Of a DNA stretch of 32,000 nt, positions 1-23,531 are shown one piece after another (position 1 is the stretch's first letter; each line of letters begins with the position of its first letter). The notes beneath the pieces are model-generated. The model saw only the letters and a program-made list of their open reading frames with translations, did not search any database and had not been told where the DNA came from. The DNA lies in NCBI RefSeq assembly GCF_037902255.1, contig NZ_CP147990.1:2460001-2492000 (forward strand). Direction: 5' to 3'. Origin of the DNA: Candidatus Electrothrix sp. GW3-4. Its GTDB lineage: Bacteria > Desulfobacterota > Desulfobulbia > Desulfobulbales > Desulfobulbaceae. Both the position numbers and the translations under genes were made by a program.

Positions 1-718
1 CCCCGAGAAAGAGGGACTGCTGATTATTAGACGGGGCATAGGCGCTATAATCCTCAAGAGCTGCCTTTTTCTCTACCTTGATCTTGGCAAAGAGGCGACC
101 CAGCCCGGAATTGCGCAAGGCACCGTCCTCCACGTTCTGGCCCAGATCAGACTCACCAGCATGGGTGTAGACTACATCCCCATCGGCAGCAATGAGAAAG
201 ACGTCGTAATAGCCATGCTCTTCGACAAAGGAGGCAAACATGGGGCCGTATTTCTCTTTATAGCCGTTCCAGAGGCTGCCGCCAACCTTGCCCCCCTCTT
301 CATGAAGGGCCTCGCCAAACTCCTGGATGGCGTTCTGGGTACTGAGGTTTTTCGTCATCATGGTGGCGTCAGAAAAACGCTTGCCAAAATAGCGCTCCAG
401 GGCCGCTTTCTTCAAGGCCTCAATACCCAGTGTCTTCGCAACAGCATCGGCACGAAGACCCTGAATAACCTCAGAGACCATCTCAATATCAGCATAGGCC
501 TCCCCCAGGTAATCCACAATCTGTCCTTTTTTCAGGTCGCGGATACCCTCCAGCTGGTTATCAGCACGTGCCTCCAGGGCCTTGGCCGCCTGCAACTGGT
601 CAACAAAGGCGTTGACCAGAAAGGGCAAAAGACCAACGGCGAGCATGATCGCAACCAGCTTACCGCGAAGTCCCAGACCTCCAAACCAGCCGGAAGTCGT
701 CCTCTTCAAATTTTTCAT
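1..718 (-). CDS. 5' part of a gene that runs off the left edge: membrane-anchored Cache-like sensor protein, most likely a methyl-accepting chemotaxis protein
   Basis: Absent from the ORF track because it is open to the window edge. My minus-strand translation from the ATG at 718-716 gives MKNLKRTTSGWFGGLGLRGKLVAIMLAVGLLPFLVNAF (basic N-terminus plus one TM helix). It continues ...YYDVFLIAADGDVVYTHAGESDLGQNVEDGALRNSGLGRLF..., typical of periplasmic Cache-type ligand-binding modules. An SD-like GGAGGAGGGG (complement of 724-733) lies 5 nt upstream. The output domain is outside the window, so MCP versus kinase or cyclase is undecided. Confidence 0.6.
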   Translation of the reverse strand, partial: MKNLKRTTSGWFGGLGLRGKLVAIMLAVGLLPFLVNAFVDQLQAAKALEARADNQLEGIRDLKKGQIVDYLGEAYADIEMVSEVIQGLRADAVAKTLGIEALKKAALERYFGKRFSDATMMTKNLSTQNAIQEFGEALHEEGGKVGGSLWNGYKEKYGPMFASFVEEHGYYDVFLIAADGDVVYTHAGESDLGQNVEDGALRNSGLGRLFAKIKVEKKAALEDYSAYAPSNNQQSLFLG

Positions 719-823
719 ACTTTCCCCTCCTCCTGTCTGTTTTCCGATAGTACCGATGGACCGGCTGCTACTGTCCGGTACCGGGCCTCGTTCTGCCGCA
801 CTCCAAAGAACATGCCTCCATAC

Positions 824-856
824 CTCCTTATGGGCTCCTTATGGGCTCCTTATGGG
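824..856. repeat. Perfect 3 x 11-bp tandem repeat (ctccttatggg) in the spacer between the CheB-like gene and the sensor gene
   Basis: Read directly: the units at 824-834, 835-845 and 846-856 are identical. On the minus (coding) strand the unit reads CCCATAAGGAG. Confidence 0.9.
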
Positions 857-925
857 ATTTATATTATTTCTTTAATATATATCGGTATATCTTAAATATT
901 GCAATTGGATCCGTATTTTTTTTTC

Positions 926-2731
926 TCAGGCAGCCATTTCCCCTGCCGAGCTCGCCAGCACGGCCTCAATACTCTTGGGAATTCCCGTATCTGCCAGCAG
1001 TTTGGCCCCAGGGCAGCGGGCTGCTACGGCCCCGGGCATCTCCCGGTACAGGCTCCCTGCCGGATCCTGGACAATCCCGGTCCCACCGACCCGCAAGACC
1101 TCCTCCATCCCCTCTCCTCCATCCTCACCCATCCCGGACAGGACAACAGCCACACTTTTCTCTTTTATTCGCTCGGCCACAGAGTAGAAGAGCATATCTA
1201 TTGACCCCCTGCGCGTGGCAAAAGGGGCTTGAGAAAGATGGAGCACCAATTCCCCCTCCAGCTCATGTACGGTCAGGTACTCATCGCCTGAGGCAAAATA
1301 GCAGACCCCGGCTTCAATCCGGGCGTTATTCTCTGCCCGCCGGATAATCAAGGGGGAAAGCCGGTTGAGATACTTAACAAAGGAATCCAGATGGCGAGAA
1401 GGGGCATAGAACATCACCAGGTATGCCACAGGAAACTGGGCAGATAAATGAGGCAGGAGCTTGAGTAAGGCCCCGTAACCGCCTTCTGCAACGCCCAGGG
1501 CGACAAGCCGTTCGCAGCGCTGACCTGCAAGGGCAAGCGCATCTTTCTTTTCCTGACTCACGGCCCGCACATATTTCACCGCCTCCAGCTCAACTTCCGC
1601 TGCCAGACGCACCTTACGCTCGATCTCGCTGGTCTGCTCCTCAAGATTTATCTCTCCGGTATTCGAGGGCTTAGCAACAAAATCCACTGCCCCGTATTTC
1701 AAGGCATCAAAGGTAACGTCAGCCCCTTCTACAGTCATTGAGCTCAACATCACGGTAGGAGTAGGGGCCTGGATCATCAGGTGTTTGATCGTTGTCAGGC
1801 CATCCATAACCGGCATTTCCACATCAAGGGTCACCACGTCTGGTTTGAGCTGGGGAATGATCTGCAACGCCTCTTCCCCGTTCTCTGCTTCGCCAACAAC
1901 TTCCACAACAGGGTTGTCTTTAAAGATATTGGCAATGACCTTTCGCATCATTCTGGAGTCATCGACAATAAATAAATTAATCTTCTGATCAGCAGCCTTT
2001 ACGCGGCTACCTTCACCCACCCCATGACCAATGGGACTGCCAGCGGCCTCCTTTTTCAATTTGGCTGTGATCAGGACAGTTTCCAAGCCCTTAGGGGTAA
2101 TAAGCTTTTCTACCCCTACTCCTGGTGGCTCCTCGGTGAATCCCAAGGGAGGCCAATCAAATATCTCCAAAGCAGCCTCAACCCCTTGCTTGTTCTCACA
2201 AGAGGCATTCACGAGCATACCGTTTTCAAAGTACAAGACGCCCTGTTTTTTACTGCCGAAATGGACGCGGATGCAGCAGGTTTTCTGCAAGGCCTCAAGG
2301 AAAGAGACTATTTTTCCGACAAATACGCCAGGGATATAGTCATTTTCATCCAGACGTTGGAGCCCTTCAAGAACTGCGCAGCCAATGGTCTCCAGGTTTG
2401 TTGGCTTAACAAGGTAGAGATAAATAGAATCTTTAAAATGACACTCTCGCACCGCGTCAACAGAGCGGTGCTTCTCCGAGATCATAACGATGCATTGGAT
2501 ATGTCGATAAGAAGAGGAAACAAGGGAGAGCAGGGCCAACGCGTCAATATTTTCCGCATTAAGATTAAGCACAAGAACAGCTATTTTTTCTTTTTTCAGG
2601 GCAAATATTTCATCCCCCCTGTTCGTGGCGGTCAGCACCTCGTACTGACTGTAGGCGGACAGAACGTCACAGAGATCATTGACAAAGGTCAGATCGTCAT
2701 CAACAATGAGAATTTTAGATATATCAGACAT
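926..2731 (-). CDS. Multidomain signalling protein: pseudo-receiver, DUF4388/PATAN domain, CheY-like receiver and a CheB-type methylesterase-like domain with a degenerate catalytic triad
   Basis: 601-aa ORF. The N-terminal REC-like fold (ILIVDDD...LVKP) has Asn at the expected phospho-acceptor position (VLVLNLN). GKIVSFLEALQKTCCIRVHFGSKKQGVLYFENGMLVNASCENKQGVEAALEIFDW matches the DUF4388/PATAN pattern. The second REC (FIVDDSRMMRKV...VTLDVEMPVMDG) resembles the E. coli CheB receiver. The C-terminal domain aligns by eye with the CheB esterase (LSGMGEDGGEGM). Confidence 0.85.
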   Translation of the reverse strand: MSDISKILIVDDDLTFVNDLCDVLSAYSQYEVLTATNRGDEIFALKKEKIAVLVLNLNAENIDALALLSLVSSSYRHIQCIVMISEKHRSVDAVRECHFKDSIYLYLVKPTNLETIGCAVLEGLQRLDENDYIPGVFVGKIVSFLEALQKTCCIRVHFGSKKQGVLYFENGMLVNASCENKQGVEAALEIFDWPPLGFTEEPPGVGVEKLITPKGLETVLITAKLKKEAAGSPIGHGVGEGSRVKAADQKINLFIVDDSRMMRKVIANIFKDNPVVEVVGEAENGEEALQIIPQLKPDVVTLDVEMPVMDGLTTIKHLMIQAPTPTVMLSSMTVEGADVTFDALKYGAVDFVAKPSNTGEINLEEQTSEIERKVRLAAEVELEAVKYVRAVSQEKKDALALAGQRCERLVALGVAEGGYGALLKLLPHLSAQFPVAYLVMFYAPSRHLDSFVKYLNRLSPLIIRRAENNARIEAGVCYFASGDEYLTVHELEGELVLHLSQAPFATRRGSIDMLFYSVAERIKEKSVAVVLSGMGEDGGEGMEEVLRVGGTGIVQDPAGSLYREMPGAVAARCPGAKLLADTGIPKSIEAVLASSAGEMAA

Positions 2732-3426
2732 GAATCATACAGCAAATTCAATTTGTAAGGAAATCCTTTGACATATGCAAAGTATGCTTTTCAAGCAATC
2801 CCCAGAAAAAAACGACCGCCATATCAGCACCCGAACTCCATCACCTTTCTAAGATAGCATATCTCAAACTGAAATCAAATTTTTATTAACAGTATTGAAA
2901 GGATTCGTGCAGTATCCTCAGGAGCGGCCCAAGCAACATAACGTCACCCCTTCTTTAATACATACCTCCTGACCACCTTTCTGGAAAGAATTATTATCAA
3001 CTCAACCCATCTACGACCTATTTTTCTGCACGATTAGCGTAAGATAGAAAATCTATTCATACTCACGGCCTCCTCTCTCCAGGAAAGACAACGCGCCCCA
3101 ACCTATCGTCTCGTTCCGCAGCAGAAAAAGCCGGGCAAAGGGGCAAGGCCATGAAGGCCGGTTGTACGGACGCGGGGCAGCCCCTTGAGAGGACGCAGGT
3201 GTGAAGCAACTCCAAAAAAACTCCCAAAAGAGTGAACGCGACTTACAAAGAAGAAAACTGACCGGTGCAGATATTAAGGGCAAGGGGCTCCTTGCCCTGT
3301 GCAACGAAACTGCCATCCCAGCGGACAGAGAGAATAAAAGATGAACCTTGGTCGAGCGACTTGAATGCTTCATCCAGCACACCCGGCACCTTCATATAAA
3401 GGATTCTGGCCAGGCAGGGGCCGGGT

Positions 3427-4704
3427 TCAGCCGCAAACGGAAGCGACAATCTTGTCAATAATGCCAGTGGTGGAGGTTGGACAGGTAAAGGCTATTCGCT
3501 CTATTCTTCCCCCAGCAGCTTTGACCTCAGCTGCACCGGCTATCTGCTCCTCGGACCAATCTGCCCCCTTGACCAGGATATCCGGCAACAGGTGGGTAAT
3601 CAGCCTGCGGGGCGTGTCTTCATCAAAGAGCACGACAAAATCCACACAACCAAGCGCTGCCAGGACCCGAGCTCGCGGGCCCTCACCATTCACCGGCCTG
3701 GAGGGCCCTTTCAAGGCCTGCACAGAGCGGTCGGAATTCAAGCCAATGACCAGACAATCTCCACAACGACGAGCCTCTTCCAGGTAGCTGACATGGCCCG
3801 CGTGCAGGAGATCAAAACAGCCATTGGTAAAGACGATTCGACTTCCCTGGGCCCGCAACGGTCTCAGGCGCTCCAACAGGACCTGCTGTTCAAGGACTTT
3901 ATCGCTGTTTTGGCCATACCACGGGCGCTCAGCCACAGAGCAAAAACGGGACCGGACCGCATCAAGGTCCGCCCCCTTGAGCTCTGTCCTAATCACTGCC
4001 GGTTGCGCATCAGCTTCAGCAAGGACCCGACCTGAAGGATCAATAATCATGGAATGACCTGCCAGCTCACCACCAGGGACCTGGCCGCTACCGTTACATG
4101 CCACCACAAAGGCCTGATTCTCCACAGCCCGCGCCTGGAGGAGGATCCGCCAGTGATCAGTACGAACTCTGGGCCATTGTGCAGAGACAACAAGCAGTCT
4201 AGCCCCTGCAAAGACCTGTCTCCGGCTGAGTTCAGGAAAGCGAAGATCATAGCAGACCAAGGCCCCGATCGGACCAAAAGGCGTCTGCACAGCCTGTGCT
4301 TCCTTGCCAGCAGTGAGATATCGATCCTCCTGCCAGGGCCTGAACAGGTGCTGTTTCTGATAACGACCAATAACCCCTTCAGGCCCAACCACAAAGAGAG
4401 AATTAGAGATCTCCCTGGATTCCTGCGTTTCCTGCCTCTCTAATAACGAGCCAGCAAACCATATCCTGCTCTGCGCCGCTTTTTCCTGGAGCTCAGCAAG
4501 GACGTGCGGGGTCTGGTCGGCAAGGGTCCCTATATTTGCATAATCAAAGCCACTCGCCCAAAGTTCGGGCAGGACAACCAAGGTGTCCGCAGAAAAGCGG
4601 GCTGCGGCCAGCATTTTTCGCAATTCATTTAGATTGGCAGCCAGATCACCTTGATGAAGAGGCATCTGCAAACAAGCAACTCGTGGGAAGACATCTCGTT
4701 CCAT
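3427..4704 (-). CDS. Fusion protein: N-terminal carbon-nitrogen hydrolase (nitrilase superfamily) domain plus C-terminal cytidylyltransferase-fold domain of the RfaE/HldE domain II (D-heptose-1-phosphate adenylyltransferase) type
   Basis: 425-aa ORF. The CN-hydrolase Glu-Lys-Cys triad contexts are present (VVLPELW, RYQKQHLF, LVCYDLRFPE). The C-terminal IVFTNGCFDLLHAGHVSYLEEARRCGDCLVIGLNSDRSVQALKGPSRPVN...ILVKGADW carries the HxGH nucleotidyltransferase motif and closely resembles RfaE domain II. Confidence 0.8.
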   Translation of the reverse strand: MERDVFPRVACLQMPLHQGDLAANLNELRKMLAAARFSADTLVVLPELWASGFDYANIGTLADQTPHVLAELQEKAAQSRIWFAGSLLERQETQESREISNSLFVVGPEGVIGRYQKQHLFRPWQEDRYLTAGKEAQAVQTPFGPIGALVCYDLRFPELSRRQVFAGARLLVVSAQWPRVRTDHWRILLQARAVENQAFVVACNGSGQVPGGELAGHSMIIDPSGRVLAEADAQPAVIRTELKGADLDAVRSRFCSVAERPWYGQNSDKVLEQQVLLERLRPLRAQGSRIVFTNGCFDLLHAGHVSYLEEARRCGDCLVIGLNSDRSVQALKGPSRPVNGEGPRARVLAALGCVDFVVLFDEDTPRRLITHLLPDILVKGADWSEEQIAGAAEVKAAGGRIERIAFTCPTSTTGIIDKIVASVCG

Positions 4705-5408
4705 TACCCCATCTCCTTGAGGGCCTGGGTGGCAAGATCGGCAACCGAAACCGTGGTGAAAACACCGTGGTTATAGAGACGCAACCTCCTCTGGTCATTT
4801 GTTGCGAGTTCCTGCAAACGCTCCATTGCCTCGGGACGTCCCAGCAGACCGATTGCCCGCGCAGCTAGCCCACAGACCGTTGCGTCAGGAGACGCCAGGT
4901 AGGGAGGCAGATCATGCTCTACCCCACGAGCAAGCAAACGTCCCTTATGACACTGGGCTAAGCGCCCCACAGCCCAGATGAGGCCCTGCTGTAGCATCTC
5001 ATGTTCAAGAAAATTTCCGTCCTGCCACTCCTCTTCACCATCTGGTCGCATGTAGGAGATCAGCATATGGATATACTCATCAGCCAAGCCCGCATGACAG
5101 CACATGATCTCGGCCATAGATTCCGGCGCACCCCAGCCGATACCACCAGACTCATCATTCAAACTCCACAGCATACGACGAAGAATCACCCGGGCCTCTT
5201 CCATGTCCTGCTCCGCCAACCGGGCTACGGCCCCGCCCATGGCAGAGACCGCATGCCAACGGATTCGCTCGTCCGGGTGACAGATCCCGAAAAAGAGGGC
5301 GTTAACCAATTCTTTTTCCTGGAGGAGGGTGAGTTCCGTTTCAATGCTGGCGAGATCGTCCTGCTTCAGCAACTCAAGCACGTGTTGCTTAATTGCTCGT
5401 GTTCCCAT
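4704..5408 (-). CDS. HEAT-repeat-like protein resembling the DVU0298 family (function unknown)
   Basis: 234-aa ORF. Helical-repeat sequence (ERIRWHAVSAMGGAVARL..., WSLNDESGGIGWGAPESMAEI) matches what I recall of the DVU0298 family. Its stop overlaps the start of the downstream CN-hydrolase fusion gene at position 4704, which suggests translational coupling. Confidence 0.55.
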   Translation of the reverse strand: MGTRAIKQHVLELLKQDDLASIETELTLLQEKELVNALFFGICHPDERIRWHAVSAMGGAVARLAEQDMEEARVILRRMLWSLNDESGGIGWGAPESMAEIMCCHAGLADEYIHMLISYMRPDGEEEWQDGNFLEHEMLQQGLIWAVGRLAQCHKGRLLARGVEHDLPPYLASPDATVCGLAARAIGLLGRPEAMERLQELATNDQRRLRLYNHGVFTTVSVADLATQALKEMG

Positions 5409-7616: not shown

Positions 7617-8699
7617 TCATTCTCCTTCCCCCTGTTTTTCATCGATACGGCGCAGCCCCTCCATAATGAGTCCCATAAATCCTCCCAAGACAGGAAGCTC
7701 TTTTTCCCTTGCAGCAAGCCCCTTGGTGTAGGTAAACAATCCTTTCTGCTTGGCCAGGAGAGAAAAAATAGCCTCTTTTCCTTCCAGGCTTCCGTATTTA
7801 CAGGAAACTATTTCACCTTCATTAAACAGGGTAACGGCCTGACCTTCATCAAAGACAAATTGCACCTGCCCTGTCTTGCCACCGGAATTGATCAACTGAA
7901 ACAGCTCCACAGAATTGATATCTGTCAGCTCACCGCTCATACCGGAACTGATATTACCCGCCCGCATGGTATTTTCCTGAGCACGGTTTACTAAGACTCT
8001 ATAGAAAAAAATTTGCAGGATAGGATACCTGGACAGGACGTGCTTAAAGTCCTTTGCCTTGAGAGCAGCCAGCTGAACCGCTGTCTTGGAATACACTGAA
8101 GGGTAGGTCAATTCTCCAGAAAGCAGACTCATTTCACCAAAGATATCGCCAGGACCGATCTCTGCTACCACCTCGTTATCCTCACGGACAACAGCCACTG
8201 TTCCGGCTAATACCACGTAGAAATGGGTTCCAAGTTCTCCGGCCTCAATAATGACCTTGTTCGCAGGATACTTTTGCAGCTTCATCAGAAGGGCAAGGTC
8301 CTGGAGATCAAAATCATCCAGAGGCTCAAACAACTCCATCTCCCGAAGTAGACCGAAGAATTCTTCAATAAGTTGTTTCTTTGCCCGTTTTTTCGCGACC
8401 TCAAGAAGATTCATCTGCAAAGTGGAGTAGGCATTCTCCTTTTTATACTCAAAACGAATCAGGCCGGTACAGCCGCCGCACTCAAATTTCGTTCGCCGCA
8501 TCCCGGTCTGGGTGAAACGAGGCTGTAAGGGTCTTGTCCCGGTCAGCGCCTTCAGCACTTCCTGAACCAGCATCAGACAGACTTCTTTATTGTGCTCAAT
8601 GGTCAGCGTGGAATCATGAATGACAAATTCATCGCCAACATTATATATGGGACATGCGTGCTCTTCGGTAACAACGAATACAGCATTGCGATATTCCAT
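7617..8699 (-). CDS. Three-domain signalling protein: conserved Cys4 N-terminal domain, cyclic-nucleotide-binding domain, DUF4388/PATAN domain (paralog 1)
   Basis: 360-aa ORF with Cys16, Cys41 and CGGC at 74-77. The cNMP-binding beta-roll is seen in VIIEAGELGTHFYVVLAGTVAVV...IGPGDIFGEMSLLSG. The C-terminal GELTDINSVELFQLINSGGKTGQVQFVFDEGQAVTLFNEGEIVSCKYGSLEGKEAIFSLL fits DUF4388. Confidence 0.8.
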   Translation of the reverse strand: MEYRNAVFVVTEEHACPIYNVGDEFVIHDSTLTIEHNKEVCLMLVQEVLKALTGTRPLQPRFTQTGMRRTKFECGGCTGLIRFEYKKENAYSTLQMNLLEVAKKRAKKQLIEEFFGLLREMELFEPLDDFDLQDLALLMKLQKYPANKVIIEAGELGTHFYVVLAGTVAVVREDNEVVAEIGPGDIFGEMSLLSGELTYPSVYSKTAVQLAALKAKDFKHVLSRYPILQIFFYRVLVNRAQENTMRAGNISSGMSGELTDINSVELFQLINSGGKTGQVQFVFDEGQAVTLFNEGEIVSCKYGSLEGKEAIFSLLAKQKGLFTYTKGLAAREKELPVLGGFMGLIMEGLRRIDEKQGEGE

Positions 8700-8795: not shown

Positions 8796-9869
8796 TCAGC
8801 TCACCTGTTCCTCGTCTAACTTTTGCAGCCCTTCCATCAATAGGCCCATAAAGCCACCAAGCACAGGCAGATCTTCATATTTCTTGGCAAGTTCCGTGTT
8901 ATAGGTAAAGGACCCCTTCTTTTTGGACAAGAGCGCAAATAACGCATCCTTCCCATGAAGGTCTCCGAAAGAGGCATGAATAATTTCTCCCTCCTTAAAA
9001 AGGATAGTGGCATGGCCATCGTGAAAAATCAAGTCAACTTTACCGGATTTACCACCACTATTAATCAACTGAAAAAGCTCTACCGGATTGATATAAATCA
9101 GTTCCCCACTCATACCAGAACTAATTTTACCGGACCTGGCCATATTCATTTGCGCACGGTTCACCAGCAGACGATAGAAAAAGATCTGCAGAACCGGATA
9201 TCGATTAAGAATAAATTTCAGGTCCTTTCCGTTAATTGTACCAAACTTGACCACGGTCCGAGAATGAACCGAGCTGCTTGCAGGTTCTCCTGAAAGCAAA
9301 CTCATCTCACCAAAGATCTCACCCCGTCCTATCTCAGCGATGACCTCATTATCCCCTTTGATAATAGCGACCTTACCGGAGAGTATAATGTACAGATGCG
9401 TTCCCCTCGTTCCCTCGGAGATAATAACCTTATTCGGATCAAACTGTTTCAACTTCAGCATTGAAATCAGATCTAACAAATCATGATCTTCAAGAAGCTC
9501 AAACACCTGCATGGTCCGGAGATGTTTAAACAGGGCTTCCACATGCCGTTTCCTCGCCTTTTTATCAGCGATGCGCAGAAGATTCATCTGCAACGTGGAA
9601 AATCCCCGTTCCTTTTTATACTCAAAGCGCATGGAACCTGTGCAGCCGGGGCAGCGGAAGGATGCCCGTTGCATAGCCATCTGCGTAAATCGCTGTTCCC
9701 CTGGTTTTTTAGCAAGCGCTTTATGGAGTTCACGCACCAAGATCAAGCAGACCGGTTTTTCATAGTCCACACTCACTGCCGAATCTTGAATCTGGATTTC
9801 TTCACCTACATTGTAAATAGGGCAGGAATCCTCCGAGGTAACAACAAAAACAGCGTTACGATATTCCAT
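8796..9869 (-). CDS. Three-domain signalling protein: Cys4 N-terminal domain, cyclic-nucleotide-binding domain, DUF4388/PATAN domain (paralog 2)
   Basis: 357-aa ORF collinear with the neighbouring 360-aa protein. It has the identical N-terminus MEYRNAVFVVT, conserved Cys16, Cys41 and CPGC at 73-76, IGRGEIFGEMSLLSG, and GELIYINPVELFQLINSGGKSGKV. Confidence 0.8.
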   Translation of the reverse strand: MEYRNAVFVVTSEDSCPIYNVGEEIQIQDSAVSVDYEKPVCLILVRELHKALAKKPGEQRFTQMAMQRASFRCPGCTGSMRFEYKKERGFSTLQMNLLRIADKKARKRHVEALFKHLRTMQVFELLEDHDLLDLISMLKLKQFDPNKVIISEGTRGTHLYIILSGKVAIIKGDNEVIAEIGRGEIFGEMSLLSGEPASSSVHSRTVVKFGTINGKDLKFILNRYPVLQIFFYRLLVNRAQMNMARSGKISSGMSGELIYINPVELFQLINSGGKSGKVDLIFHDGHATILFKEGEIIHASFGDLHGKDALFALLSKKKGSFTYNTELAKKYEDLPVLGGFMGLLMEGLQKLDEEQVS

Positions 9870-15776: not shown

Positions 15777-16622
15777 TCAGATTCGTCGGGAAAAACGAAA
15801 AACATTATGCGGACAGATGTCAATACAGCGCCCGCAGTTCAGACAGTTTTTTGCAAGAATAAACGGTGAGCTCTGCGCATCACCTTTGAGCGCAGGCCGG
15901 ATGACCTGGGGTTCAGGACAGACAGCAAAACAATCGCCGCAATCGGTACATTGCCCTCGTCCAGCAGCCTTTATTCTCAGAAGAGCAACAAAGCTCAACA
16001 GGCTGTACATGGCTCCCATGGGGCAGAGATGCCCGCACCAAGCACGCCGCAGCAGAAAAGCATCAAAGGCAAAAATGGCCAGGATGAAAATCCATCCCAT
16101 CCCCATACCGAACAACAGACCCCGCTGCAACATGGTCACCGGGTTGAGCCATTCATAAACAATGGTTCCGCTGACAGCAGACAAGATAAGAATCGCCCCC
16201 ATGAACCCATAGCGCGTCTTCTTGCTCAGCTGGAGGACTTTTTTCATCCCCATCCTCCTGTTCAACCAGGCAGCTGTATCAGTCACCAGGTTCACGGGGC
16301 AGACCCAGGCACAGAATACTCCGCCACCAAGCAAGGCATAGAGGACGATCACGACCAAGGCACCGACCAAGGCGCTTGATGCTGGCGAATGACCGGCTGC
16401 AAGGGATTGGAACATAATCAGCGGGTCTGTCATAGGAAGGAAACCCAAGACCTCGCTGGCTGACAGGGTTCCTCTGATAAGCCAAAGCCCGAGCAAAGGA
16501 CCTGCCAAAAAAATCCCCAGAATGGCAAGCTGCGAGATTCGACGCAGAAGCAGCCATTTATACGAGCGTACCCAACCTTTTTTTTCCACCGCCTCTTGGC
16601 CTGGCCTTCTTTTCTCGATCAT
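15777..16622 (-). CDS. napH: Membrane-bound quinol dehydrogenase subunit of the Nap system
   Basis: 281-aa ORF with four TM segments, CPVNLVTD and CGHLCPMGA motifs, and C-terminal [13 protein letters not shown] and [13 protein letters not shown] ferredoxin motifs. Its start overlaps the napG stop by 4 nt. Confidence 0.9.
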
Positions 16623-17497
16623 GGCAATTCCTCCGGCATCCGCACAGGCAATTGCAGGGCCTCAGGTATAAGGGACTGGCCTGCTTTCTCTTTCTCCTGC
16701 CAACCCAGACGATAATGGTGCCCAAGCTCACCCCGTGCCTGGGCAAGGGGCAGCACCTTGATCGCTGGATGTTCCAAAATGCAGGAACGTTCGCATTTTC
16801 CGCAGCCTGTACAGTGCTTGGAATGCACTGTGGGAATAAAACGGGCATGCATGCCGGTTCGTTGATTCGCTACCATATCCAGGGTCAGGGCCTTATCCAG
16901 TACCGGGCAGTTCCGATAGCAGACATCACAGCGCAGCCCCTGAAAACCGATGCAATTTTCATGATCAATGAGCACGGCCAGTCCCATTCTTGCCTCATAG
17001 ACGGAAGGCTCCTTCTTTTCCTCATCGAGAAGGGTCTTCTGACTCAAGGCCCCGGAAGGGCAGGCCCGGACGCAGGGCATATCCTCACATAAGCGGCAGG
17101 GACTGGTTCGGGGAACAAAATACGGGGTCCCCACCGGAACATCGCTGCCTGCTTCGGCCAAACGCAAAACCGGCTCCAGCTCTACAGAGGCGTTGGGATT
17201 CACCTCCATTGGCCCGTCGGCATTCATCTCCGGCATGTCATTATTGCGCAGGAGATTGGCATGACAGGCCCGGACACATTGCCCGCAACGCAGGCAGGCT
17301 GCCTGGAACGCCTTTTCCGGCAGAGCCCCTGGTGGGCGTATTGCCCGGGCAGGCACAGCCTGAGCAGAGCGCTGATAGGCCCCCAGCCCCACAGCCAGCA
17401 CAAAGGCCCCAGCAGCAGCTGACAGGGTATCTCTCAGAAAGCGACGACGTCCCTCCTCCTCCCTGTTATGGTGCTGTCTTGTTTCTCTTTCATCCAT
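16619..17497 (-). CDS. napG: Periplasmic ferredoxin-type subunit of the Nap quinol dehydrogenase
   Basis: 292-aa ORF with a twin-arginine signal ([17 protein letters not shown]) and four Cys clusters ([45 protein letters not shown]). Confidence 0.9.
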
Positions 17498-17531
17498 TTC
17501 GGTCTCCTTAGGCCATGCTTGAGATCTTGCT

Positions 17532-20024
17532 TTAGGCCTTGGTCACCTTGACGGCACATTTTTTATAATCCGTTTCTTTGGAGATCGGACAGGTGGCATC
17601 CAGAGTCAGCTTATTGACCAGGCGGCCTGCATCAAACCAGGGCACAAACACCAGCCCTTCCGGCGGCTTATTCCTTCCTCTGGTCTCCAGAGGACAGGTA
17701 ATCTCACCCCGACGGGAAGCAAGCTTGACCAGCTGCCCGCGCTTGAGGCCCCGTTTTTCCGCATCCTTGGGATGCATAAAGACCTGAGCATCAGGCACAG
17801 CCCGGTACAGCTCCGGCACCCTTCTGGTCATGGAACCGGAATGCCAATGCTCCAGGACCCGACCGGTACAGAGCCAGAGATCATACTCCTTATCCGGTGA
17901 TTCCGCAGGCGGCTCATAGGGCAAGGCAAAGATCACCGCCTTACCATCGAGCTTACCGTAAAAACGAATGCCCTCACCCTTCTTCACATAGGGATCATAG
18001 CCTTCCCGGAACCGCCACAGGGTTTCTTTATTATCCACCACCGGCCAACGCAGGCCACGTGCCTTATGATACATCTCAAAGGGGGCCAGGTCATGACCAT
18101 GTCCCCGGCCAAAGCTGGCATACTCCTCAAACAGGCCCTTTTGCAGGTAGAAACCAAAATGATGAGCCTCGTCGTTATCGTGCCCCTTTTGCAGTTCGCT
18201 CAAGGGGAACTTATCCACCTGTCCATTGGTATAGAGCACCTCATACAGGGTCTTGCCCTTATAGGCTGGATTCTTGTCCAGGAGCTCCTGAGGCCAGATC
18301 TCATCGGTTGTGAAGTACTTGGAAAACTCCACCAGCTGCCAGAGATCACTCTTTGCCTCACCCGGTGCCTTGACCTGCTGGCGGAAAAACTGGGTCCGAC
18401 GTTCCGCATTGCCATAGGCCCCTTCCTTTTCTGTCCACATGGCTGTGGGCAGGATCAGATCACCAGCCATCGCCGTGACCGTGGGATAGGGATCAGAAAC
18501 CACGACAAAGTTTTTCGGATTGCGGTAGCCAGGATAGGCTTCCTCGTTGATATTGGCAGCGGCCTGCATGTTATTATTACACATGACCCAATAGGCATTG
18601 AGCTTCCCGTCCTTAAGCATCCTGTTCTGAAGCACAGCATGATAGCCAGGTTTCCCAGGAATGGTACCAGCGGGTAATTTCCAGATCTTCTCTGCTATCT
18701 CACGATGCTTGGGATTTTTCACCACCATGTCAGCAGGCAGGCGATGAGAGAAGGTACCCACCTCACGGGCCGTACCGCAGGCCGAGGGCTGGCCGGTGAG
18801 CGAAAAGGGGCCATTGCCTGGTTCGGAGATCTTGCCGGTGAGCAGATGGATATTATAGCAGAGCTGATTGGCCCAGGTGCCACGGGTATGTTGATTAAAG
18901 CCCATGGTCCAGTAGGAGACCACCTTGCGCTTGGGATCTGCATAGAGCTCAGCCAGAGCCTCTAAATCCTTTTTTGGCACCCCGGATATCTCATGGGCCT
19001 TGTCCAAGGTGTACTCGGAGACATACTTGGCATACTCCTCAAAGGTGTACTCTTTTGAGCCACCTGTATTCGCAGCATTGGCAGCCTTTTTTTCCCTAGG
19101 GTCTTCGGGACGCAGACCATAGCCGATATCGGTATTACCGATACGAAAATTGATGTGCTTGTCGACAAAATCCTTATTCACCTTGTTATTCTTAATAATA
19201 TAATTGGCAATATAATTCATGATGGCCAGATCGCTCTGGGGTTTGAACACCATAGGAATATCTGCCAGGTCAAAACAACGGTGCTCATAGGTAGAAAGCA
19301 CGGCCACCTTGACATGATTCGCTGTCAGGCGTCGATTAGTGAGCCGGGACCAAAGAATAGGGTGCATCTCCGCCATGTTGGAGCCCCAGAGGACAAAGGC
19401 ATCTGCATTCTCCAGGTCATCATAACAGCCCATAGGCTCGTCAATGCCAAAGGTACGCATAAAACCCGCAACAGCTGAGGCCATACAATGGCGGGCATTG
19501 GGATCAAGATTATTGGAGAGAAAACCTGCCTTAAAGAGCTTGGCAGCGGCATAGCCTTCCCAGACCTGCCATTGCCCGGAACCGAACATACCCACCGTGG
19601 TTGGTCCGTTCTTGTGAATCGCCTCTTTAAATTTCTCGGCCATGATCTTGAAGGCCTCCTCCCAGGAGACCGGAGTAAATTCGCCGTTTTTATCGTACTT
19701 GCCGTTTTTCTTGCGCAGCAAAGGTTTGGTGAGGCGATCCTTGCCGTACATGATCTTGGTCAGGAAATAACCCTTGATACAGTTCAACCCCTTATTCACC
19801 GGGGCATCAGGGTCGCCCTGGGTCGCCACAATCCGACCGTCCTTGGTCCCCACCAAGACACCGCAACCTGTACCGCAAAAACGACAAGGTGCCTTATCCC
19901 ATCGGATCCCCTTATCCCCCTCAGCAGCCAAGGCCTTTTGCGTGGCCGGGAGCTGCGCACCTGCAACAGCGGCAGCGGCCATTGCAGCGTTGGCCTTAAT
20001 AAAATCACGCCTGTTTAGCTTCAT
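17532..20024 (-). CDS. napA: Periplasmic nitrate reductase catalytic molybdopterin subunit
   Basis: 830-aa ORF with a Tat signal ([19 protein letters not shown]), the N-terminal 4Fe-4S motif CRFCGTGCG and the Mo-ligand context ARHCMASAV. It appears collinear with NapA throughout. Confidence 0.97.
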
Positions 20025-22061: not shown

Positions 22062-23531
22062 ATGAGAGTGGTATTGTGGACGGCTGCCTTGGCGCTGGCA
22101 GTCGGAATACAAGGTGGGAACGTGCAGGCCGCGCAGAAAAGCGGGCTGCCCAGCCAATTGTCAGAGGAAACCAAAACATGTTTGCAATGTCATAAAGACA
22201 TTAACCGGGGCATGTATCAACAATGGGGATCCAGTAAACATTTCGGCGCCAATGTGGGCTGTTACGAATGTCATCAGGCCGACGCTGGGGACAAAGATGC
22301 TATGCAGCATAACGGCTTCACTGTTTCCATTATTGTTTCACCCAAGGATTGTGCCAAATGTCATGAAAAAGAGGTCAAGGAATTTGAGGGATCACATCAT
22401 TCCAAGGCCGGACAGATCATGGGTTCCCTGGACAACCTGCTTGCTGAGGTTGTTGAAGGCAACCGTGGCATGAAGACCGAAAGTTTCCCGGACGGAATTT
22501 CAGCGGCAGCGGTCAACGGTTGCTGGCAATGTCACGGATCCAAGGTTAAGATAATGAAGGATGGTCGGCTGGATCCGGCCACTTGGCCGAACAGCGGCAT
22601 TGGACGCATCAATCCTGACGGGAGCACAGGAAGTTGCGCAGCATGCCATCAACGCCATGATTTCTCTGCGGCCCAGGCCAGAAATCCTGAGAACTGCGGT
22701 AAATGTCATATGGGACCCGATCATCCGCAGCTTGAGGTCTATAATGAATCCAAGCACGGTATTGCTTTCCGGGCCAATAAGGACAAGATGAATCTCGATT
22801 CTCCGAAATGGATAGCCGGTGAAGATTACTCTGCTGCCCCGACCTGCGCCACCTGTCATATGTCCGCGACCAAAGATCTGGATATCACCCATAACGTCGG
22901 CCTCCGCATCAAGTGGAACAACCGACCGCCGATCTCCAAGCTGTCGCATACCACTGACAAACGCTGGAAGCTGGAATCTGCCAACTACACTGCTGATCAA
23001 CGCCGGAAAGACATGCAAAAAGTCTGTATCTCATGTCACAATAAAAACTTTACAGATAACTTCTTTGTCCAGTATGAAGCTCTGATTGACCTCTATCACG
23101 AGAAATTCGCCAAACCCGGCATGGAACTGTACAACAAAGCAACAGAACTGCTCAAGGTCCTCAAAGGTAAAGAGTATGCCAAGTTTGCTCAGCTCATTGA
23201 TTACACTTGGTTTGAGATCTGGCATCATGAAGGTCGTCGCGCACGTCACGGTGCGGCCATGATGGCACCGGACTACACCCATTGGCACGGCACCTATGAA
23301 GTTGCCAAGCACTGGTACGGCAAGTACATCCCGGAACTCGAAGAACTCATTGAAACGGCCAAGCACAGCGGCAATAAAGAAGCTGAGAAATTGGGTGGTG
23401 AGCTTGCAACGATGCTCGAAGATGTGAAGAAGAACGAGAACCATAAATGGTCCATCGGGCAGGAAAACGAAGCTGACAAGAAATTACGGCTTGAGCGTAA
23501 GAAAGAATACGACGCTGGCTACGCCAACTAA
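22062..23531 (+). CDS. Hydroxylamine-oxidoreductase-family octaheme cytochrome c (epsilon-Hao-like; probable periplasmic nitrite reductase)
   Basis: 489-aa ORF with signal peptide MRVVLWTAALALAVGIQGGNVQA. Eight CxxCH motifs (CLQCH, CYECH, CAKCH, CWQCH, CAACH, CGKCH, CATCH, CISCH). HAO-family signatures CHMGPDHPQLEVYNESKHG and WHHEGRRARHGAAMMAPDY. Strong SD (AGGAGG). Confidence 0.85.
   Translation: MRVVLWTAALALAVGIQGGNVQAAQKSGLPSQLSEETKTCLQCHKDINRGMYQQWGSSKHFGANVGCYECHQADAGDKDAMQHNGFTVSIIVSPKDCAKCHEKEVKEFEGSHHSKAGQIMGSLDNLLAEVVEGNRGMKTESFPDGISAAAVNGCWQCHGSKVKIMKDGRLDPATWPNSGIGRINPDGSTGSCAACHQRHDFSAAQARNPENCGKCHMGPDHPQLEVYNESKHGIAFRANKDKMNLDSPKWIAGEDYSAAPTCATCHMSATKDLDITHNVGLRIKWNNRPPISKLSHTTDKRWKLESANYTADQRRKDMQKVCISCHNKNFTDNFFVQYEALIDLYHEKFAKPGMELYNKATELLKVLKGKEYAKFAQLIDYTWFEIWHHEGRRARHGAAMMAPDYTHWHGTYEVAKHWYGKYIPELEELIETAKHSGNKEAEKLGGELATMLEDVKKNENHKWSIGQENEADKKLRLERKKEYDAGYAN

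Follow-up and report, generated by a model that had tools for sequence, protein, structure and literature searches.

CheB, a protein-glutamate methylesterase/glutaminase (EC 3.1.1.61 / 3.5.1.44), is the textbook adaptation enzyme of bacterial chemotaxis. The other closest described proteins are the PatA-type regulators, such as PixG, PixE and PilG of Synechocystis and PatA of Anabaena, in which a phosphorylatable receiver (REC) comes after a PATAN domain. In Synechocystis, these regulators are typically encoded by the first gene of a che locus, and PATAN itself interacts with PilB1 and with the N-terminal domain of PilC, and is sufficient both for output and for reversing phototaxis (bioRxiv 10.1101/2021.06.11.447907). 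PilB1 and PilC are the only PATAN partners defined by experiment, and some orphan PatA-type regulators have functions besides pilus control (bioRxiv 10.1101/2021.06.11.447907). Here we analyze a gene that combines the two designs, from the cable bacterium Candidatus Electrothrix sp. GW3-4. It lies at 926..2731 on the minus strand of the window, which is the whole stretch of 32,000 nucleotides that was analyzed (contig NZ_CP147990.1, positions 2,460,001 to 2,492,000). Gliding and responses to oxygen are known from cable bacteria, with type IV pili implicated in the movement (PMC12163305); according to literature cited in that source, other known motility machinery is absent from them.

The open reading frame (ORF) is complete, with inspected ATG start and TGA stop codons, and encodes 601 amino acids. 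The order REC-PATAN-REC-CheB-like, which a sequence-only reading of this DNA had claimed, is borne out by Pfam and NCBIfam scans, profile comparison and a structure model. From the N-terminus, and all on the minus strand, the protein consists of a pseudo-receiver, REC1 (residues 5–125, 2357..2719), a PATAN or DUF4388 domain (residues 130–230, 2042..2344), a linker (residues 231–247, 1991..2041), an intact receiver, REC2 (residues 250–365, 1637..1984), and a CheB-like domain with a broken catalytic triad (residues 406–590, 962..1516). Pfam Response_reg matches two stretches of the protein (111 bits). The AlphaFold2 model, built from a 41-sequence alignment, has a mean confidence score (pLDDT) of 85.9, and predicted disorder is confined to the linker, which scores below 50 and differs in length between relatives. 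The protein of Ca. Electrothrix laxa (P0001) is 91% identical, and those of Candidatus Electronema are 65–68% identical. We refer to this four-domain protein as the long form of type A, one of three CheB-like types described below.

The CheB-like domain belongs to a well-defined family and has lost two of its three catalytic residues. CheB_methylest (PF01339) matches residues 410–584 with 126.2 bits against a cut-off of 24, and HMMER aligns the protein to Salmonella CheB (1A2O) with E = 1e-48 and no gaps around the motifs. In this alignment, Ser164 of the GASTGG motif corresponds to Ala415 in GVAEGG (codon GCA, 1487–1489), His190 of TQHMPP corresponds to Tyr442 in MFYAPS (TAT, 1406–1408), and Asp286 of GMGNDG is kept as Asp537 in GMGEDG (GAT, 1121–1123). 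The sequence-only reading had proposed these two losses and the kept Asp; the proper alignment agrees, as Ser and His are not relocated and the triad stays broken. A structural comparison leads to the same fold: by Foldseek, the modelled C-terminal 350 residues superpose on full-length CheB with a TM-score of 0.84 and a root-mean-square deviation of 3.5 Å, and the TM-scores to 1A2O, 6YMZ and 3SFT range from 0.82 to 0.88.

The protein thus shares with the CheBs of Salmonella and E. coli (1A2O, 1CHD, 6YMZ) the two-domain unit of REC and CheB_methylest, with about 32% identity to Salmonella CheB over the Foldseek alignment and the same predicted inter-domain arrangement. It also retains Asp286 with its GxGxDG motif and the phospho-acceptor residues of the receiver, and its gene lies in a che cluster next to an MCP gene (MCP, methyl-accepting chemotaxis protein). 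On the other hand, not only Ser164 and His190 are replaced: Thr165 is an invariant Glu, and other motif positions are altered clade-wide. An additional 245-residue REC-PATAN head precedes the CheB unit, the cluster is devoid of CheR, and the cluster MCP has no strict methylation consensus. The curated NCBIfam CheB models are also missed, narrowly in the case of NF001965 (291.3 against a cut-off of 293) and clearly in that of NF009206 (251.3 against 342).

The two receivers differ at the phospho-acceptor. REC2, aligned to the receiver of 1A2O, keeps Asp257, Asp258, Asp303 (codon 1823–1825), Ser330 and Lys354, and these columns are invariant in the family, so that the earlier claim of a retained Asp pair and acceptor Asp stands. 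Its packing in the model resembles that of full-length CheB, which is consistent with a CheB-type N-terminal regulatory receiver whose acceptor Asp is present. REC1 is recognized by Response_reg with 32.4 bits when the N-terminal 245 residues are scanned alone, and shows a (beta-alpha)5 pattern with pLDDT values of 80–94. It keeps Asp12, Asp13 and Lys109, with Asn56 (AAT, 2564–2566) at the acceptor position; in the alignment with the receiver of a related locus, L025, this residue falls on the Asp of TDLYMPKMDG. The Asn acceptor noted in the sequence-only reading is therefore correct for this protein, but it is not a general trait, as the acceptor Asp is retained in remoter long forms and the Asn is limited to cable bacteria and a few relatives.

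The middle segment is a PATAN domain by several approaches. Pfam places DUF4388 at residues 139–199 with 24.7 bits on the whole protein, just below the cut-off of 25, and with 27.2 bits when the N-terminal 245 residues are scanned alone. In hhalign, a profile of 13 relatives matched a profile of eight bona fide PATAN domains (44–67 bits in Pfam) across 97 columns, at a probability of 98.9% and with E = 3.7e-17. DUF4388 (PF14332) is matched independently by 19 of the 41 family members, and the AlphaFold2 model of the segment shows an alpha-beta3-alpha-beta-alpha pattern with pLDDT around 90. From the fragment score, the profile comparison and the relatives, the assignment to DUF4388 that had been made from the sequence alone is upheld, and the possibility that the middle segment is something else can be set aside.

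The order of PATAN domain, linker and phosphorylatable-type REC2 with Asp303 means that a PatA-type core is present, with further domains on both sides. The likeness to PatA-type regulators extends to gene position, the type A gene being the first of the chemosensory locus in 14 cable-bacterial loci, and to a host that glides on surfaces with type IV pili implicated. In contrast to the PatA-type proteins, the core is flanked here by a pseudo-receiver on its N-terminal side and a CheB-like domain on its C-terminal side, no alpha-helical insertion is seen in the predicted PATAN domain, and CheB-like genes are absent from the cyanobacterial Tax loci.

The loss of the triad is not a peculiarity of one genome. 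Among the 120 closest 90%-identity clusters, only two keep both Ser and His. None of the 57 long forms has the Ser, which is replaced by Ala in 55 and by Gly in two, and 44 of the 57 also have Tyr for His; of the short forms, two out of 62 keep Ser, His and Asp. A broken triad is thus characteristic of an entire CheB clade, type A, to which numerous 345-residue REC-CheB-like proteins of Desulfobacterota and Gammaproteobacteria also belong. A search with the family profile covered 1.84 billion representatives of 50%-identity clusters. Four-domain proteins of about 600 residues that matched from the first receiver on made up at least 35 of the 150 best matches, and every PATAN-bearing protein among the 150 had a broken triad. 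Ordinary 350-residue CheBs with Ser, His and Asp predominate only below about 290 bits. The distribution check suggested along with the sequence-only reading therefore shows an architecture that is common in sequence space. The accompanying remark that it was not recognized as described holds in so far as the searchable literature, which leaves out several key papers, contained no description of PATAN-CheB fusions, CheB pseudoenzymes, the che operon of cable bacteria or this cluster; rare, however, it is not. In the databases, these proteins go by 'response regulator', 'chemotaxis response regulator CheB' or 'protein-glutamate methylesterase'; the latter two names are probably wrong for most of them. 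One 660-residue type A protein of a Desulfococcus metagenome-assembled genome (MAG; L029 4559-6541) has an intact Ser/His/Asp triad, and its N-terminus shows a weak, 27-bit similarity to the REC-PATAN head; judged from its sequence, it may be a long form with catalysis preserved.

The domains are maintained by selection. Across seven Electrothrix orthologs, dN/dS is 0.04 for REC1, 0.05 for PATAN, 0.03 for REC2 and 0.05 for the CheB-like domain, and is highest, at 0.18, for the linker; these values are rough because dS is near saturation (about 1.1–1.3). REC2 is the most conserved domain, with 88% pairwise identity. All four domains are under strong purifying selection, with dN/dS of about 0.03–0.07. 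Clade A moreover has near-invariant residues of its own relative to canonical CheB: Thr165 is replaced by Glu416, a Pro by Tyr419, Phe195 by His447, an Arg by Tyr454, a Glu by Arg465 and a Val or Ala by Cys477, to which Glu520, Glu540 and Glu544 are added. These signature residues are common to the members with intact and with broken triads, and they therefore mark the specificity of the clade, not a compensation for lost catalysis. We considered Glu416, His447 and Cys477 as compensating residues and regard this as unlikely for the same reason.

The gene belongs to a conserved chemosensory cluster. To survey it, one genome per species was scanned with the CheA of E. laxa, which yielded 79 loci. 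In Desulfobacterota they come from cable bacteria, Desulfocapsa, Desulfurivibrionaceae, Desulfonema, Desulfococcus and Desulfosarcinaceae, and in Gammaproteobacteria from Methylococcales, Achromatium and Chromatiales. The complete arrangement in E. laxa and Electronema begins with two genes for cyclic-nucleotide-binding PATAN proteins, a HEAT-repeat gene and a carbon-nitrogen (CN) hydrolase/cytidylyltransferase gene. It continues with A, MCP, CheW, CheY, a HAMP protein, CheA (about 1200 residues) and B, a 349-residue REC-CheB-like protein, followed by a zinc-ribbon ParA-like ATPase and the permease, ATPase and NMT1-type binding protein of an ABC transporter. PilZ, HAMP and TauE genes and C, a 460-residue PATAN-REC-CheB-like protein, close the cluster. 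Across the loci, the recurrent order is A-MCP-CheW-CheY-(HAMP)-CheA-(C)-B-ParA-(HAMP-TauE)-ABC transporter, and the single CheA is accompanied by at least four proteins with receivers. The long form is not always the first gene: in the relatives L019, L020 and L086, it is found at the cluster's end.

In a neighbor-joining (NJ) tree, the CheB-like ORFs of these loci form three clades, A, B and C, all apart from canonical CheB. Clade A carries GA[A/S/G]EGG, then Tyr or His, then Asp; clade B carries GT[S/T/N]L.G, then Glu (Asp in a few loci), then Asp; and clade C, which bears PATAN domains, has Gly, then Asn, Ser or Thr, then Gly or Asp. All three types are degenerate. Type C shares the domain vocabulary of type A and also has a broken triad: the cable-bacterial proteins are 460-residue PATAN-REC-CheB-like proteins, while those of Desulfobacterales have about 600 residues and the identical four-domain order, with DUF4388 scores of 64–67 bits. 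Type C nonetheless differs from type A in its separate CheB-like clade, its triad positions and its place in the cluster. For reference, types B and C correspond to L004 13686-14735 and 20422-21804, and non-canonical equivalents of them occur in about 70 loci.

The partner enzyme of CheB and its substrate sites were examined in the same loci. No CheR was found within ±10 kb of CheA in 80 other loci by an iterated search with the CheR of L079, a Thermoanaerobaculia outgroup. L079 is both the sole locus with a canonical GSSTGG/QHMPP CheB and the sole locus with a CheR, which is adjacent and scores 200 bits in Pfam. The strict methylation consensus [ASTG]2-x2-[EQ]2-x2-[ASTG]2 is found in none of the cable-bacterial cluster MCPs and is missing from 48 of the 61 cluster MCPs overall. 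At one aligned site, SQVEEA, six of the nine loci with a Ser-bearing type A protein have the consensus, as against none of the 33 in which the type A protein is without Ser, which suggests, from these sequences, a co-loss of the enzyme and its substrate site; the correlation is a lead and not a test, because the lineages are few and related. The consensus at this site also occurs in L082, whose type A protein is incomplete. MCP genes with an SQVEEA[ST]TA-like consensus are those of L046, L051, L060, L069, L070, L077 and L082.

The long form appears to have arisen by fusion of neighboring genes. In Desulfurivibrionaceae-type loci (L023-L025 and L028), a REC-PATAN-TPR-REC gene (TPR, tetratricopeptide repeat) stands directly upstream of a short type A gene, in the same cluster and at the same position. 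The short protein is 50–60% identical to residues 250–600 of the 601-residue protein and has the same AEGG...Y/H...D motifs, while the N-terminal 245 residues align to the head of the upstream regulator with 28% identity and E = 1e-26, spanning REC1 and PATAN. This head is a better match than those of the four-domain type C or other REC-PATAN proteins. The arrangement differs in comprising two genes, not one. The upstream regulator contains a TPR/zinc-ribbon segment in the middle and ends in a receiver of its own, and its first receiver keeps the acceptor Asp where REC1 has Asn. In Methylococcales, the upstream gene encodes a 740–765-residue PATAN...PATAN-TPR-REC protein. The NJ tree places the cable-bacterial long form in a monophyletic group with the long forms of Desulfobulbaceae and Desulfocapsa, nested in short type A. 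The simplest history that these sequences allow would be a fusion of the REC-PATAN head of the upstream regulator to the neighboring REC-CheB-like gene, followed by loss of the REC1 acceptor Asp in cable bacteria. The occurrence of separate adjacent genes in sister lineages and of their fusion here suggests that the two proteins work together. As a fusion donor, we also considered a 274-residue regulator whose gene lies upstream of a short type A gene in L084, and rejected it, as its receiver alone matches (E = 8e-4) and the order is wrong.

Based on these comparisons, the reading that we put forward, with about an even chance of being right, is that the C-terminal CheB-derived unit no longer works as a methylesterase and that the protein is a CheA-phosphorylated, non-catalytic adaptor derived from CheB and equipped with a PatA-type output head. 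The CheA of the cluster would phosphorylate Asp303 of REC2, and this phosphorylation would free the CheB-like domain from its receiver, as in CheB. The freed domain would then bind a partner, most plausibly the chemoreceptor of the cluster, without cleaving it, and the PATAN domain would serve as the output, coupling the state of the receptor to pilus-dependent gliding of the filament. By analogy with the cyanobacterial regulators, type IV pili are probably the target of this head. The proposal agrees with the sequence-only reading, which had likewise arrived at a non-catalytic CheB scaffold with a PatA-type output, one that could dock on receptor or CheA sites.

Several points weigh against this proposal. 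The link between PATAN and pili is carried over from cyanobacteria, the cluster showed no pilus gene, and its conserved partners, the ParA-like ATPase, the ABC transporter, PilZ and TauE, could point to another output. CheR may sit elsewhere in the genome, beyond the ±10 kb around CheA. Clade A has its own invariant residues, E416, Y419, H447, Y454, R465, C477 and E520, at and around the former active-site motifs. The roughness of the dN/dS values and the small, related set of lineages behind the MCP correlation point in the same direction.

Given these invariant residues, the CheB-like domain might still be an enzyme that uses other catalytic residues, for example Cys477/His447/Asp537 or a set based on Glu416. 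It could then serve as a deamidase, or hydrolyze some other receptor modification. E416, H447, C477, Y454, R465 and E520 are 87–100% conserved in the clade, unlike in canonical CheB, Asp537 is invariant, and the domain is under strong purifying selection. The same signature is nevertheless found in members that keep Ser, His and Asp, as expected of a clade feature, and the mosaic of Ala, Gly or Ser at one position and Tyr or His at the other resembles relaxed constraint on catalysis; we consider such an enzyme quite unlikely. The residue aligned to C477 presumably lies where a core strand of CheB begins, at a distance from the edge that holds the active site. Multi-CheY systems are known to use phosphate sinks, and the protein could in principle be mainly a sink or competitor for phosphorylated CheA through REC2, with the other domains merely anchoring it at the receptor array. 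The intact REC2, which is the most conserved domain, and the presence of one CheA with several receiver proteins accord with this idea, but it leaves unexplained why PATAN, REC1 and the CheB-like domain are conserved at a dN/dS of around 0.05 and why PATAN was recurrently fused to degenerate CheB in clades A and C. We regard it as unlikely.

A signalling output with a target other than the pilus has a small but real chance of being correct. Such an output might position the array through the ParA-like ATPase, regulate the ABC transporter or TauE, or act on polarity proteins of the MglA/MglB type. The ParA-like ATPase and the ABC transporter are kept in nearly every locus that reaches far enough downstream of CheA, one relative (L063) has a REC-PATAN-Roadblock/LC7 protein, and the functions of some orphan PatA-type regulators, mentioned above, extend beyond pilus control. 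Opposed to this are the experimentally defined PATAN partners, which are PilB1 and PilC only, the PilZ gene in the cluster, and the absence of other known motility machinery from cable bacteria in the literature as cited in PMC12163305. Finally, with two of three catalytic residues and the REC1 acceptor lost, the protein could be taken for a decaying relic, or the fusion for an assembly or annotation artefact. This is hardly credible, and is effectively refuted: the frame is intact, the same fusion occurs in more than 50 independent assemblies, including the closed chromosomes of E. laxa, Electronema halotolerans and Electrothrix YB6, dN/dS is about 0.05, and synteny is kept across genera.

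The gene downstream of the type A gene was described in the sequence-only reading as a Cache-type sensor and probable MCP, which was confirmed through a full-length ortholog. The window contains its 5' part (1..718, minus strand) and the gene runs off the edge; Pfam gave no match on the 239-residue fragment alone. This fragment shares 58% identity (E = 2e-82) with the N-terminus of a 1063-residue E. laxa protein with dCache_1, HAMP and MCPsignal domains, and synteny agrees.

The intergenic spacer (719..925, minus strand) is itself highly conserved among Electrothrix species. It contains a promoter-like TTGCAA-N17-TATATA element and a leader with a 32-residue upstream ORF, MFFGVRQNEARYRTVSSGRSVLSENRQEEGKV, whose TGA overlaps the ATG of the MCP gene as ATGA; in E. 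laxa, a 32-residue gene is annotated at the same place. The DNA is almost invariant over about 170 nucleotides in seven Electrothrix species, while dS of the flanking genes is about 1.2 (equivalents: L004 4528-4733; L005-L008; L013). An 11-nucleotide unit, CCCATAAGGAG, which holds the Shine-Dalgarno-like AAGGAGG of the upstream ORF, is repeated three times in tandem at about 825–860 of the window (minus strand) and occurs in single copy in the six other Electrothrix sequences. In Electronema, an unchecked hand translation points to an upstream ORF of 43 codons that likewise overlaps as ATGA, and the leader there can fold into a strong hairpin (z = -4.0). For the Electrothrix leader, predicted folding does not exceed that of shuffled sequence (z = 0.18), and the alignment of the two genera is too poor to show any covariation. 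Rfam at gathering thresholds and a tRNA scan gave no matches in the window, including the leader, and a promoter and terminator scan of 600–3500 gave a site count not above that of shuffled sequence.

Other genes in and around the cluster may be mentioned here. Directly upstream of the che gene, the window holds a fusion of a carbon-nitrogen hydrolase with a cytidylyltransferase-like domain (3427-4704, minus strand) and a HEAT-repeat protein (4704-5408, minus strand), and this placement is kept in Electrothrix, Electronema and a Desulfobulbaceae MAG (L075). Further upstream, tandem paralogs (7617-8699 and 8796-9869, both on the minus strand) encode a cyclic-nucleotide-binding domain followed by PATAN (DUF4388, 57 and 60 bits); the pair occupies the same place in E. 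laxa and Electronema aureum and is a second PATAN set near the PATAN-CheB genes. Within the cluster itself, the ParA/MinD-like ATPase with its N-terminal zinc ribbon (L004 14942-15853) and the three-gene ABC transporter (L004 15875-18497), made up of a permease, an ATPase and an NMT1/phosphonate-type binding protein, are kept in most of the loci L004-L082, L083, L084 and L086, an unusual chemosensory association found in two phyla. In the regions 15777-20024 (minus strand) and 22062-23531 (plus strand), there are two 4Fe-4S proteins that adjoin an 830-residue molybdopterin oxidoreductase and, nearby, a multihaem cytochrome with MtrC/MtrF-like matches; these are apparently unrelated to the CheB-like finding.

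To conclude, the individual parts of this system are all of known kinds. The novelty lies in how they are combined, in the loss of catalysis throughout the clade while purifying selection persists, and in a cluster of three CheB-like paralogs that has no CheR nearby and is apparently undescribed. More tentatively, and with the balance still tilted against it, the cluster may represent an undescribed chemosensory class. In this class, adaptation by CheR/CheB methylation would be replaced by three CheA-phosphorylated, non-catalytic CheB-derived proteins, A, B and C, that read or clamp the receptor and steer type IV pilus movement through fused or adjacent PATAN domains. The class would occur widely, both in Desulfobacterota and in Gammaproteobacteria, for example Methylococcales and Achromatium. 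Throughout a whole clade, the CheB fold, its regulatory receiver and purifying selection are retained, while the nucleophile and the general base are repeatedly discarded and PATAN is repeatedly fused; if our reading is true, the clade would clearly exemplify the conversion of an enzyme into a phospho-switchable binding module. Some Methylococcales are cultured and genetically tractable, and the presence of the same cluster in this order makes the idea testable beyond the uncultured cable bacteria. For the latter, the cluster is a concrete candidate for the pathway of oxygen-guided gliding, and, if the proposal holds, a three-CheB pathway would position their centimetre-long filaments in the oxygen-sulfide gradient.

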